A DNA stretch of 64,000 nt, from NCBI GenBank assembly GCA_963771275.1, contig CAVYSW010000003.1, positions 384,001 to 448,000 of the forward strand, in the 5' to 3' direction. A program made the translations under genes and the position numbers. The notes beneath the pieces were generated by a model. The model made no database searches, was not told the DNA's origin, and saw nothing but the letters and a program-made list of their open reading frames with translations. The number at the start of each line of letters is the position of its first letter. Within the stretch, counting starts at the first letter, position 1. Positions 4,486-54,389 of the stretch are shown here, in pieces. The DNA comes from an uncultured Gemmatimonadales bacterium (GTDB taxonomy: Bacteria; Gemmatimonadota; Gemmatimonadetes; Gemmatimonadales; GWC2-71-9).

Positions 4486-5775
4486 ATGATCACCAGGGTC
4501 CACATGGAAGCCTTGTCGCCGACGATGGAAGAGGGCCGGATCGCGTCCTGGCTCAAGCATGAGGGCGACGCGGTGAAGGTGGGCGACGTGCTGGCCGAGG
4601 TCGAGACCGACAAGGCCATCATGGAGCTGCAGGCCCGGGGCGACGGCGTGCTGCGGAAGATCCTGGTGGGGCCCGGCGCCACGGCGCCGGTCGGGAGCCT
4701 CGTCGCGGTGATAGCGGACGCGGGGGATGATATCGCGAGCCTCGTCGCCGGCGCCCCTGCCGTCCCTGGCGCTCCTGCCGCCTCTGCCGCTTCTCCCGCT
4801 CCTGCCGCTTCTGCCCCCCCGGATCAGAGGGGGAGAGGGGCAGAGGTGGAGACCGGCGCTCGTCCCTTCCCCTCCACGCCCCTGCCCCCGGGTGAGGTCG
4901 CGGCGGGGCGGATCAAGGCCTCACCGCTCGCGCGCCGGCTCGCGCGGGAAAAGGGCGTCGCGCTCGCGGCCCTCACCGGCTCCGGCCCGGCCGGCCGCAT
5001 CGTCAAGCGCGACGTGGAGTCTGTGGCGTCGACGGCAGCCTCTGCCGCCCCTGCCGCTCCTGCCCCCTCGGCCCCCGGTGCCGCGGGCGAGGGGAGCGGG
5101 TGGCATGACGTCGTCCCCAGCCAGCTCCGCAAGACCATCGCGCGCCGGCTCACCCAGTCGCTGGGACCCGTGCCGCACTTCTACCTCACCGTCGAGATCG
5201 ACATGGAGCGCGCGGCGGAAGCGCGCGACGCCCTCAACGCGCTCGGCGACGTCCGGATCTCGTTCAACGACATCGTCGCCAAGATCGCGGCCATGGCGCT
5301 GCGACAGCACCCGGCGTGCAACGCCTGGTGGCAGGACGGCGCGATCCGCTACTTCGACGCGGTGCATCTCTCGATGGCGGTGGCGATCGACGACGGCCTG
5401 ATCACGCCTGTGATCCGCGACGCGCACCGCAAGTCGCTCCGCGAGATCGCGACCGAGAGCCGCGACCTCGCCGACCGGGCCCGCGCCCGCCGGCTGCAGC
5501 CGGAGGAGTACACCGGCGGCACGTTCTCGATCTCCAACCTCGGCATGTTCGGCATCGACGAGTTCACGGCGGTGATCAACCCGCCGGAGGCGGCGATCCT
5601 CGCCGTGGGGGCGGTGGCCGAGAAGCCCGTCGCGCTGGCCGGCACGGTCACGGTCCGCAAGCGGATGCGGATCACCCTGAGCTGTGACCACCGCGTCATC
5701 GACGGCGCCACCGGAGCCCGGTTCCTCCAGACCGTCACGCGCATGCTCGAGAACCCGCTCGCCATCGTTTGGTAG
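4486..5775 (+). CDS. pdhC: pyruvate dehydrogenase E2 dihydrolipoamide acetyltransferase
   Basis: lipoyl domain EVETDKA, E3-binding ASPLARRLA, catalytic DHRVIDGA; start trimmed to ATG 4486. Confidence 0.95.
   Translation: MITRVHMEALSPTMEEGRIASWLKHEGDAVKVGDVLAEVETDKAIMELQARGDGVLRKILVGPGATAPVGSLVAVIADAGDDIASLVAGAPAVPGAPAASAASPAPAASAPPDQRGRGAEVETGARPFPSTPLPPGEVAAGRIKASPLARRLAREKGVALAALTGSGPAGRIVKRDVESVASTAASAAPAAPAPSAPGAAGEGSGWHDVVPSQLRKTIARRLTQSLGPVPHFYLTVEIDMERAAEARDALNALGDVRISFNDIVAKIAAMALRQHPACNAWWQDGAIRYFDAVHLSMAVAIDDGLITPVIRDAHRKSLREIATESRDLADRARARRLQPEEYTGGTFSISNLGMFGIDEFTAVINPPEAAILAVGAVAEKPVALAGTVTVRKRMRITLSCDHRVIDGATGARFLQTVTRMLENPLAIVW
4825..4890. repeat. inverted octamer-repeat element lying in frame in the pdhC linker
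   Basis: GAGGGGGA-GAGGGGCA-GAGGTGGA ... CTTCCCCT-CCACGCCC-CTGCCCCC. Confidence 0.5.
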
Positions 5776-38168: not shown

Positions 38169-39319
38169 GGCGGGCCGCCGCCGCAGGGCTGCTGGTTGCA
38201 GTGCTCGCCGCGCCGCTCCAGGCGCAGTCGGCGGGGCACCGCCTGCCCCGGAAGTGGCTGTTCGCCGCAATCGGGGCGTTGGCCTCCGGAACGGTCGGAC
38301 TCGTCTACGCCGTCAGCTTCGAGCGGGATATCGGCGGATGCTCGGCGGCCGGCTGCGTGCTGACGGTGAGCACCTTGGGCGGCGCCCTGCTCGGCTTCAT
38401 GATCGGGAGCGAAGTGGACCACCTGTACAACATCCGCTACAGCCATGCCCCGCCGATCACGCTGCGCGGCAGGGCGCTCTCCCTCGCGGTGGTTCCCACT
38501 GACCTCGCCGTGCGCGAGCACACCGCGTTCGTGACCGGGCAGGAGGGCATCGAGCTCGTGGGGACGGATCAGCGCCTGGAGCGGCTGGGGTTCAAGGCCC
38601 GCGGGCTGCGCGGGATCGGTCCGATCGCCAGCGACAGCGCCCGCAACGAGCTGCTCGTGGGCACGGCGGCGGGGCTCTACCGCTTTCCCCTCCGCGGCGA
38701 CGACCCCGGCGCACTCGCGTTCCAGGCCGACATCTCCGCGCTCGCGCGCCGCGACGGCGTGCTCGCGCTCGGCCTCGGAACGGATCTGCAGCTCGCCATG
38801 CCCGACGACTCGCTCCGGATGCTCGACTCCGCGCGGACCACCGACAGTCGCGTCGTGGATCTCTCCTGGCAGGGCGATTCCACCCTGTGGGCCCTCACCG
38901 AGGAGGCCCTGACCGCCTATGCGGCAGATTCCTCAGGGGCGCTCACGCACGTCGGCTCGTTCCCGCTCCCCGGCATCGGGCGCCGCCTCGTGATCGGTGA
39001 CTCGCTGGCGTTCGTGGCCGCGGGGTCGGGCGGGCTCTACGCAGTCGACATCCGGGACCCGGCGGCCCCCGTCACGGTGGGTAACTGGAGCGGTGCCCGG
39101 TTCGTCTACGATGTCGCGGTGTCCGGCAGCCTCGTCTACGCCGCGGCCGGCCCCGAAGGGCTGTACGTGCTCCAGCTTGCCGGCGGTACGTTCCATCCGA
39201 TCGGCCTGTCCCGCGGCTTGGGGTTTGTCGCCTCGGTGGAAGCCGGCGAAGGCGCCATCTTCGCGCTCGACCGCGCGGGCGGCACGCTCCGACGCATCGA
39301 CCCCGTGGCTCATCCATGA
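38165..39319 (+). CDS. exported beta-propeller (LVIVD-like repeat) protein
   Basis: signal peptide; repeats AFVAAGSGGLYAVDI / VYAAAGPEGLYVL. Confidence 0.7.
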   Translation: MRRAAAAGLLVAVLAAPLQAQSAGHRLPRKWLFAAIGALASGTVGLVYAVSFERDIGGCSAAGCVLTVSTLGGALLGFMIGSEVDHLYNIRYSHAPPITLRGRALSLAVVPTDLAVREHTAFVTGQEGIELVGTDQRLERLGFKARGLRGIGPIASDSARNELLVGTAAGLYRFPLRGDDPGALAFQADISALARRDGVLALGLGTDLQLAMPDDSLRMLDSARTTDSRVVDLSWQGDSTLWALTEEALTAYAADSSGALTHVGSFPLPGIGRRLVIGDSLAFVAAGSGGLYAVDIRDPAAPVTVGNWSGARFVYDVAVSGSLVYAAAGPEGLYVLQLAGGTFHPIGLSRGLGFVASVEAGEGAIFALDRAGGTLRRIDPVAHP

Positions 39320-40008
39320 ACCACCGCGTGCTGCTCGCAGCCGCCGGCGTGCTGCTCGTGCTCGGCGGCGGCGCCGCCGCGTTCCGTGCGGCCCGGCCGC
39401 CCGCCGCCGCTCCCGCCACGCCCCGGCCCGAAGCCGCGACGAGCGCGCCTCAGGATTCGGCGTTGGGAGCGCGCACCAAGGGATCGCCCGACGCCCCGGT
39501 GACGGTCCTCGAGATCGCCGACTTCCAGTGCCCGGCCTGCCGGGTCTTCTGGGAACAGACCATGCCCCATCTCCAGCAGGAATACGTGGAGTCGGGCAAG
39601 GTGCGCTTCGTGTTCCTGAACCTCCCCCTGGTGGAAATCCACCACAACGCCGCCGCCGCAGCGCAGTTCGCCATGTGCGCCGCACGGCAGCATCGCTTCT
39701 GGCCGATCCACGATGCGCTGTTCGAGCATCAGTCGGCATGGGCCGCGCTGCCGGATCCGAGTGCCTACTTCTTCAGCCTCGCCGCCGCCGCGGGCCTCCG
39801 GACCGACGCGCTCGGCGCGTGCGTCGGCGACACCGCCCTCCGAACCGCGATCGCCGCCGAGGCCGAGGGTCTGGCACGGGCAGGCGTCCGCAGCACCCCG
39901 TCGTTCGTGATCGACGGCAGCTTGCTCGAAGGAGCCGCCCCGATCGAGAGCTGGCGGCCGATCCTGGATTCGATCTACGCGGCCAAGAAGAACGCCGTTA
40001 GCCGATAG
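39316..40008 (+). CDS. DsbA family thioredoxin-fold protein
   Basis: KGSPDAPVTVLEIADFQCPAC, GVRSTPSF cis-Pro loop; its TAG stop lies in the heptamer array. Confidence 0.9.
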   Translation: MNHRVLLAAAGVLLVLGGGAAAFRAARPPAAAPATPRPEAATSAPQDSALGARTKGSPDAPVTVLEIADFQCPACRVFWEQTMPHLQQEYVESGKVRFVFLNLPLVEIHHNAAAAAQFAMCAARQHRFWPIHDALFEHQSAWAALPDPSAYFFSLAAAAGLRTDALGACVGDTALRTAIAAEAEGLARAGVRSTPSFVIDGSLLEGAAPIESWRPILDSIYAAKKNAVSR

Positions 40009-40054
40009 CCGATAGCCGATAGCCGATAGCCGATAGCCGATAGCCGATAGCCGA
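39999..40054 (+). repeat. heptamer tandem array (TAGCCGA)8
   Basis: eight perfect copies read directly. Confidence 0.97.
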
Positions 40055-40127
40055 CGAGTGCGATGGACTGCGCCCGCGCGCAACGAAGTGGTGCTCCCAC
40101 CCCCGACAATCTGGTTACCCTAGCCGC

Positions 40128-40511
40128 ATGGAGGGGTACAAGGCACTCCACAGCTGGCGGCTGGCGCGACAACTGTGCCTTGGGGTGCTCGAGGCGACGG
40201 ACGGATCGCTGCCCCGACGGGCGTGGACCGTGGTCGACCAGCTTCGGCGAGCAGCCGTTTCCGTGGATGTGAACCTCGTTGAGGGGTACGCGCTCGGGAC
40301 CGTACCGCTCTTTCGCCGTCACGCACGCATTGCCCTGGGTTCCGCGGCAGAGGCCCAGCGCTTGCTGACAATCGCTGCCGAACGGGGCTACCTGGCGCGA
40401 GACACAACGGTCGAGCTGCTCAGCCTGGCGGATAGGACCGTGGCATGTCTGGTGGGACTGCTGCGTAGCCGGAACCTCGTCGTTACCCAAAGGTCACCAC
40501 CCGATAGGTGA
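40128..40511 (+). CDS. four helix bundle protein (TIGR02436 / 23S rRNA intervening-sequence protein / Avd-like)
   Basis: L.SW..A..L, DQLRRAAVSV..N..EG, F..H..IALGS..E, GYL; 127 aa. Confidence 0.9.
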   Translation: MEGYKALHSWRLARQLCLGVLEATDGSLPRRAWTVVDQLRRAAVSVDVNLVEGYALGTVPLFRRHARIALGSAAEAQRLLTIAAERGYLARDTTVELLSLADRTVACLVGLLRSRNLVVTQRSPPDR

Positions 40512-40670
40512 CGGCTATCGGCTATCGGCTATCGGCTATCGGCTATCGGCTATCGGCTATCGGCTATCGGCTATCGGCTATCGGCTATCGGCTATCGGCT
40601 ATCGGCTATCGGCTATCGGCTATCGGCTATCGGCCATCGGCCATCGGCTAACGGCCAACGGCTATCGGCC
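40512..40670 (-). repeat. heptamer tandem array (CGGCTAT)17 plus 5 mostly degenerate copies, inverted relative to 39999-40054
   Basis: perfect copies 40512-40630, then CGGCCAT x2, CGGCTAA, CGGCCAA, CGGCTAT. Confidence 0.97.
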
Positions 40671-41415
40671 CAACAGGGCAAGCCCCACATCGTACAGGGC
40701 GTGGGTCCAGGCGGTGATGCCGAAGCCGCGCGCGACGTACAGCCCGGACAGCAACAGTCCCGCGACGGCGCGAAACGTGCAGGACGCCAGCGTCAGCGTG
40801 TCGCCGTAGGGACCGACGTAGTGGAAGGCCGAGAAGATCAGCGCGCTCAACGACGAGCGCGGCACCGACGGCCACCGGCCGGCGCCAGCCAAGTGCGATC
40901 CCCAGGCTGGTGAGCCCCGACACGAGCAGCACCCGGAACAGCAGCTCCTCGTAGATGCCGGCGCCCAGCGAGATCACGAGCTGCCCACCCAGCGACAGGC
41001 TGGCGACCCCGCCGCCTGCCGCGGCGCCGCCCTGCGCGACCGCGAGCGTCGGATGGAGCAGCAGCGTCGTGAGCGCCGAGGCCACACTGCCGAACACGAT
41101 GGCGTACACGACGCTTTCGCCCAGCATGCCGAGGAAGTAGCGGCGTTCGAGCCGGCCGGGATGCCGCCGCCGGTCGCGCCACACGAACCACCCGCCGGCG
41201 CCGAGCACCACCAGCGTGAACAGCGCGACCCCGTGCCGCCCGCCCAGTGCCAGAAACGCGGTCTTCAACAGCACGTCCGCGCCGTTGCGCACCCCGGCGA
41301 ACGCCGACCGGGTCATGCCGAACGAGAGCCCCTCGTACAGCAACAGCAGGGGTAACGCGAACAGCAGGCTGTAGCGCGACTCGCGCGCGGCGGTCCAGTA
41401 CGCCCGTAGCCTCAT
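40662..41415 (-). pseudogene. CPBP (Abi/CAAX) intramembrane glutamic endopeptidase, frameshifted near 40851
   Basis: EELLFR in one frame; FSAFHY and HALYD in another; genuine lesion or sequencing error. Confidence 0.75.
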
Positions 41416-44539: not shown

Positions 44540-48483
<3,944 letters not shown>

Positions 48484-52379: not shown

Positions 52380-52480
52380 AGACGGGGGCAGAGACGAGGA
52401 GGGGCAGAGACGACGACGGGGGCAGAGACGAGAACGGGGCAGAGAGACGCGCGTCTCTCCTGCCCCTCTGCCCCCCTGCC
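52380..52480. repeat. tandem GGGGCAGAGA repeats followed by inverted CTGCCCC units
   Basis: four GGGGCAGAGA(CG) units, then CGTCTCTC-CTGCCCC-TCTGCCCC-CCTGCC. Confidence 0.75.
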
Positions 52481-53962: not shown

Positions 53963-54036
53963 ACGGCGGAACGACGGAACGACGGAACGTTTCCCCTTTG
54001 ACCTTCCGACGTTCCGTCGTTCCGTCGTTCCGCCGT
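53963..54036. repeat. inverted octamer-repeat hairpin (ACGACGGA / TCCGTCGT), 28-bp perfect stem
   Basis: 53963-53990 is the exact reverse complement of 54009-54036. Confidence 0.9.
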
Positions 54037-54041
54037 TTCAC

Positions 54042-54283: not shown

Positions 54284-54389
54284 GCCGATCGCCGATGGCC
54301 GATAGCCGATGGGTTGAAGGAGCAGGACGGGCGGGACGCAGCCCGGCCGGCACCTGGGACAATCGGCTATCGGCAAACGGCCATCGGCA
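54284..54389. repeat. inverted heptamer-repeat element (GCCGATN x4 ... ATCGGCN-type x4)
   Basis: same heptamer as 39999-40670, with a ~50-nt loop and no gene. Confidence 0.85.

Follow-up and report, generated by a model that had tools for sequence, protein, structure and literature searches.

Genes of the PF05635 family are normally enclosed in inverted heptamer arms, and one such cassette lies between two host genes in the window (the whole stretch of 64,000 nucleotides of bacterial DNA that was analysed). At this junction the cassette has been gained, lost, flipped and replaced among relatives, and four junction states are seen. The reading we favour, with a probability of roughly 45%, is that of a slow-moving, REPIN/RAYT-like selfish cassette which likely spreads and persists through natural transformation, without a transposase of its own and without excision by RNase III.

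Structure of the cassette and its protein

A preliminary description of the window had reported inverted heptamer arrays enclosing a 127-amino acid open reading frame, and re-measurement returned exactly this layout, with 8 units on the left and 17 plus 5 on the right (Table 1). The hexamer TACCCT (40116-40121) also precedes the ATG by 6 nucleotides, as claimed. Both neighbours, dsbA and the CPBP gene, terminate in the outermost arm units, where each has its stop codon in the context CGA TAG.

Table 1. The cassette, its host genes and two gene-less hairpins in the window of genome G000 (positions are window coordinates).
Feature	Position	Strand	Remarks
DsbA-family thioredoxin host gene	39316..40008	+	PF13462, 106 bits; stop codon 40006-40008 inside left arm
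Left (opening) arm	39994..40054	+	8 perfect TAGCCGA units at 39999-40054
Upstream promoter box, predicted	40078..40095	+	20 nt 5' of the -10; common to comEA, radC, comM, ssb and a pilin gene
-10-like hexamer TACCCT	40116..40121	+	6 nt before ATG; predicted leaderless start
127-aa four-helix-bundle gene (PF05635/TIGR02436)	40128..40511	+	TGA ends at 40511
Right (closing) arm	40512..40669	+	17 perfect CGGCTAT units to 40630, then 5 degenerate
CPBP/Rce1-like membrane protease host gene	40662..41415	-	weak Pfam match; stop codon 40662-40664 inside right arm
Gene-less hairpin, other unit family	45968..46044	.	fills atpG-atpD junction (names read from translations)
Gene-less hairpin, TAGCCGA unit family	54284..54389	.	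between tRNA-Pro and tRNA-Arg

The cassette carries terminal inverted repeats able to form a stem: the arms pair with each other in the minimum-energy fold of the RNA (z -11.2) and, for the other strand, of the DNA (z -6.9). The stem is absent from the centroid folds of both, most likely because the register slides. A duplex looping out the gene had been suggested earlier. The gene's own predicted transcript begins at the ATG and lacks the left arm, so that the duplex requires read-through RNA or single-stranded DNA.

The arms of 8 and 22 units far exceed the usual 3-5 units, and the neighbouring genes contain apparent indels, both of which would suit arrays produced by the assembly, or a microsatellite that arose by chance next to an ordinary gene. 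However, independent contigs hold three joins (dsbA to left arm; left arm through the gene to right arm; right arm to CPBP), including both arm-gene joins; they support the layout rather than the unit counts of 8 and 22, and contig set X1 may be the source sample. Moreover, relative G004 carries the same arms at the dsbA-CPBP junction, and the layout is found family-wide. As to the presence of the arrays, the artefact reading is therefore refuted, and taken as a whole we consider it extremely improbable. Period-7 arrays exceed chance expectation: contig C3 of G000 holds 79 of them, compared to 1-10 each for periods 4, 5, 8, 10, 11 and 13. Regarding an excised intermediate, which was looked at in contigs only, the two joints fall entirely inside the arms. 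The frame shift of the CPBP gene near 40850 is probably an assembly indel, and between 40648 and 42721 the CPBP and Kdo-transferase genes are both frame-shifted, probably by long-read indels.

The protein matches the profiles TIGR02436 (66.2 bits, cut-off 24) and PF05635 (65 bits, cut-off 33.8), in line with the family assigned to it before. A Pfam scan found no other family in it and no HUH Y1 domain. Its predicted model is all-helical and has the Xcc0516-like four-helix fold. The relationship to Avd that had been put forward holds in part: comparison with the structures PDB 2GSC, 4DWL and 8UB7 indicates that the protein is homologous to Xcc0516 and resembles Avd more weakly in its fold, the Avd scores being such as helical bundles generally give. 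Judging by 2GSC, the protein may form a homopentameric ring, and a guess from the fold would be that this ring is basic, binds the single-stranded arms and helps to copy or protect them. The gene is under purifying selection, with dN/dS values of 0.07-0.18 in 8 of 8 pairs, some of them near saturation.

Packaging, junction states and gene-less hairpins

We collected 193 homologous loci, of which 192 gave a hit, 178 had enough flanking sequence and 165 encode distinct proteins. An inverted-repeat score of at least 18 flanks 110 of these 165 loci, but only 14 of 3352 genes of G000, three of which are PF05635 cassettes themselves. Flanking inverted arrays, which the preliminary description had expected in other family members, are thus family-wide. 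The plain order arm-gene-arm is found in 108 of the 165 loci. Where both arms are present (n = 117), the unit is a 7-mer in 104 cases and the opening side is G-rich in 109. One homologue, L034 of genome G031, lies inside a 28-base inverted repeat without tandem units, and family f2 may use non-periodic arms. Our literature search found no publication describing a PF05635 gene inside inverted heptamer arms. Genome G000 has five PF05635 genes: four are inside inverted heptamer arms, each with its own unit, and the fifth and weakest is without arms.

Among 30 dsbA loci, 13 are empty, four hold a bare hairpin, four a cassette with the gene and one a different gene; one is doubtful and seven have no adjacent CPBP gene. 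Five of the 13 empty junctions have overlapping stop codons. These empty sites, for which a comparison had been proposed in the preliminary description, bear out the idea of a self-contained cassette inserted between housekeeping genes. Two of the four filled junctions are in forward and two in reversed orientation, and the repeat units at this junction are unrelated between relatives. The cassette of G004 corresponds to that of the window. Genome G003 has a 65-71% identical homologue, reversed and with a different unit, on a contig that stops short of CPBP. The homologue in G038, also reversed, has an 8-base unit and an identity of about 30%, and in the tree it occupies a different branch, which is well supported. 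According to a quick tree, the four dsbA-CPBP genes require two origins and the remaining genes group by junction; the next relatives of the window gene (71-72%) adjoin other genes. The cassette moves, but slowly, since the PF05635 paralogues within G000 share only 32-40% identity.

Both orientations occur at four of the 13 junctions represented by at least two loci. For L104 and L207, whose proteins are 90% identical, and for L073 and L131, the flanks align in reverse and the switch point is inside the arms. Flips between close relatives thus break inside the arms. In 18 of 41 pairs of close proteins (at least 70%) at the same junction the unit differs, in both arms together, and the protein is therefore not strictly unit-specific.

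Arrays are not confined to the cassettes. With our own detector and gene caller we found 203 heptamer arrays in G000, 84% of them mostly intergenic. There are five unit families and about 35 short gene-less hairpins, compared to four that bear the gene. The hairpins have a fixed polarity, which is shared by 33 of 34 pair rows and reversed in none; the remaining row is a tie, and one hairpin is counted twice. Sites at most 3 kb apart share the unit family in 29 of 49 cases, a number reached in none of 2000 permutations, against 10.9 expected. The unit of each armed G000 cassette is that of one of the array families of the genome. Three of these cassettes are surrounded by a halo of same-unit hairpins, and the window copy has one such hairpin within 15 kb. 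Elsewhere in the window, the spacers of a seven-gene tRNA cluster are filled by 8-base (53963-54037) and 7-base (54284-54389) gene-less hairpins, and inverted arrays with longer units, of 8-16 bases, separate a permease gene from a sigma-factor-like gene (52381-52480). An E2-like pyruvate-dehydrogenase gene, so named on the basis of its translation, contains 9-base (4752-4852) and 8-base (5038-5064) arrays in its linkers, partly inverted to each other.

PF05635 genes number 0-13 per genome and are absent from five of 41. Across these 41 genomes, which are kin and not independent, gene copies correlate with matches to the consensus heptamer pattern (rho 0.46, or 0.53 if the reversed pattern is added). 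Within family f1 rho is 0.64; within family f2, where genes are present without this heptamer pattern, there is no correlation. Four of the five gene-less genomes have 0-2 pattern matches and the fifth, G014, has 20. G014 contains 7 arrays in 182 kb and G011 none in 187 kb. It is this genome-level correlation that makes binding the repeats, or propagating them, a candidate role of the protein, as proposed in the preliminary description.

The same figures bear on a different view, which we think rather unlikely: the gene might be a domesticated host factor belonging to the regulon described below. The hairpins would then be elements of the host, of terminator or REP-like type, produced at junctions by slippage and gene conversion, and the gene would have come to lie in their loops because hairpins are safe, recombination-prone landing sites. 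The preponderance of gene-less over gene-bearing hairpins, the long residence at junctions seen in the tree, the purifying selection and the arrays of G014, in which no PF05635 gene was found, all fit this view. However, the loops hold almost no other gene, the copy number varies from 0 to 13 with five genomes lacking the gene altogether, and arrays are nearly missing from four of these five. Moreover, the armed cassettes carry units of the array families of the genome, three of them with a same-unit halo.

A predicted promoter pattern shared with DNA-uptake genes

The earlier claim that the gene has its own -10 element is corroborated across the family. Of 165 homologues, 134 have the pattern YANNNT at a distance of 5-7 nucleotides from the start codon, compared to 243 of 3357 G000 genes, and Shine-Dalgarno-like words precede 2% of homologues compared to 33% of G000 genes; the host gene starts in both comparisons come from a crude gene caller. 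Thus, the gene is predicted to have its own leaderless promoter inside the arms. Upstream of the -10 is a box with the consensus GC[G/A]-N6-[T/A][T/A]Y-G[G/A]T[G/T][A/C].

A model of box plus -10 was trained on 149 cassettes from other genomes, with G000 held out. Among 3360 G000 genes it ranks the four armed cassettes 7, 16, 17 and 25, in the company of comEA (5), ssb (21), radC (23), a pilin gene (24) and comM (30). In other bacteria these five are established competence genes. In relatives, 12 of 29 radC and 10 of 28 comM genes score at or above the 99th percentile, compared to none of 30 dprA and none of 29 dsbA genes, the background at this percentile being 1.3% of 798 genes. If the -10 is held fixed, the box is found in only 10 of 386 leaderless-like G000 genes, four of which are competence genes. 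Directly upstream of comEC (rank 2482), dprA (2398) and recA (328) of G000 the pattern is missing, and lexA does not score. We infer that competence induces the cassette promoter; because comEC, dprA and recA are without the pattern, however, the regulon may extend beyond competence or differ from it.

Other high scorers in G000 are four Uma2 genes, one DUF559, two ORF6N, two DUF4160, an aspartyl protease and a Y1 transposase gene, all of them lone genes (C10:75955, C10:829474, C4:2418, C3:1441187, C3:1284284, C3:1290618, C3:654181, C3:1449561, C2:6192, C10:831391, C3:659845), and several further top scorers are unrelated housekeeping genes or unnamed. The model thus also exposes a set of lone genes for nucleases and transposases which seem to belong to the regulon as well, possibly as hitchhikers on that of comEA, radC and comM. 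A second recA of G000 (C6:12414-14049) has heptamer hairpins on either side and frame breaks in recA itself and in the upstream gene. The latter, which we take to be YraN-like, is preceded by the same promoter pattern.

The Y1 gene suggests another source of mobility: a RAYT-like HUH (Y1) transposase encoded elsewhere under the same promoter could move the hairpins in trans as single-stranded DNA, with the four-helix gene as passenger or helper. REPINs are moved by such enzymes, as described in the available part of PMC3116915. The Y1_Tnp gene of G000 (C3:659845-660240) has the promoter pattern, which was also found for 13 of its 22 relatives that were scored, and the median number of arrays is 187 in genomes with Y1_Tnp compared to 19.5 in those without. 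In addition, one 55-nucleotide hairpin loop is found on two contigs, between unrelated genes. However, the Y1_Tnp query matches only 13 of 41 genomes, the array-rich genomes G007, G018 and G024 have no match, G012 has a match but almost no arrays, and Y1_Tnp genes are not inside inverted heptamer arms. We therefore regard action of a Y1 transposase in trans as improbable.

RNase III, natural transformation and known systems

Excision of the cassette from mRNA, in the manner of an intervening sequence (IVS), had been raised in the preliminary description. In favour of a cut at the stem by RNase III, the predicted RNA stem is stable, and gene family, stem and heptamers are as in the Coxiella 23S IVS, which according to the available text of PMC4990558 is cut by RNase III in vitro. 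However, four genome searches did not find RNase III in G000, which is 96.7% complete, and it was found in none of 183 genomes of families f1-f8 (its own and seven others), in which the controls were detected; another double-strand RNase could take its place. Four other families of the phylum, f9-f12, have the enzyme in 16 of 17 genomes. The single match among the 41 relatives comes from a genome with 3% contamination, in which it is located on a contig of 1.5 kb. The idea of RNase III excision thus fails here, since the enzyme was not found in G000 or in its order. Moreover, the dsbA-CPBP junction is convergent, and of 22 tandem junctions 18 have the gene in antisense orientation relative to the host operon, three in sense and one in both. 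Mismatches in the stems are not biased towards G-U on the mRNA strand as compared to the other strand, in tests that are weak: 13 and 12 in 21 hairpins (little power), 31 and 20 in one set of cassettes (n = 36) and 1 and 5 in another (n = 8). An mRNA IVS is thus very unlikely.

Natural transformation is able to add and remove inserts between homologous flanks, as the available part of PMC7064763 reports. For the slow-moving selfish cassette the following course can be envisaged. Competence would induce the cassette promoter, so that the protein is made as DNA enters. The arms would fold in the incoming single-stranded DNA, whichever strand it is, and bring the flanking host homologies together, and RecA/ComM recombination would carry the insert of ~650 bases into empty alleles. 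Foldable arms and a protein made at uptake might thus favour gain or retention of the insert. Recombination between the arms would flip the cassette, and loss of the loop would leave gene-less hairpins. The promoter pattern thereby points to competence as a candidate condition, and to single-stranded DNA as a candidate substrate, for the protein.

A bolder version, which we hold to be unlikely, makes PF05635 proteins the engine of transposase-free, RNase III-independent selfish elements: a pentamer made at competence would grip the heptamer arrays on incoming single-stranded DNA and drive hairpin insertion and rewriting at gene junctions. If true, it would explain both the orphan PF05635 family and the bacterial heptamer repeats, and rRNA IVSs would be one special landing site.

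What is new here is the missing RNase III and the held-out, cross-genome promoter test. The element thrives where neither RNase III nor reverse transcriptase was found, so that for this order the obvious routes, those of an IVS or a retroelement, drop out. RNase III went undetected across Gemmatimonadales and in some related families, which also bears on the maturation of their rRNA.

Of the known systems, the helix-45 23S IVS of Coxiella burnetii with S23p, as presented in the available part of PMC4990558, has in common with the cassette the protein family, terminal inverted repeats, heptamers in variable number and a patchy distribution. In contrast to it, the cassettes here lie between protein genes, as in the window, or beside tRNA genes, and not in rRNA; the one 23S match of G000 (2977 nucleotides over model positions 1-2925) has no large insert, and the window cassette sits between dsbA and CPBP rather than inside a 16S or 23S rRNA gene. 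The cassettes also occur in either orientation, have their own predicted leaderless promoter and belong to an order in which RNase III was not found. Since RNase III was not found in Gemmatimonadales, the mechanism that PMC4990558 describes for the IVS does not apply in this order. A likeness between PF05635 and Avd is noted in PMC10053308; as to diversity-generating retroelements, Avd scores as any helical bundle would, and no match to the reverse transcriptase family PF00078 was found in G000.

REPIN/RAYT systems, as far as the available text of PMC3116915 describes them, share with the cassettes inverted doublets that form extragenic hairpins and many copies without a gene. In both, a genome has several families of repeats, and every family is associated with a lone gene of long residence. 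Here, however, the arms are tandem heptamer arrays and not REP palindromes, they abut or supply stop and start codons, and the enclosed gene encodes an all-helical PF05635 protein instead of a HUH transposase. Finally, TAACTGA intergenic heptamer repeats occur in Beggiatoaceae, cyanobacteria and Bacteroidetes, where their mechanism is unknown (PMC4679880). Common to both are oriented tandem arrays of 7-base units that lie within a few bases of start and stop codons and often provide the stop codon. In its available part, PMC4679880 treats them as direct repeats and translational signals, without the gene, and 'four helix' occurs 0 times. In contrast, the heptamers described here are paired arms tied to a gene, and the PF05635 family and bacterial intergenic heptamer arrays, both long unexplained, are now linked.
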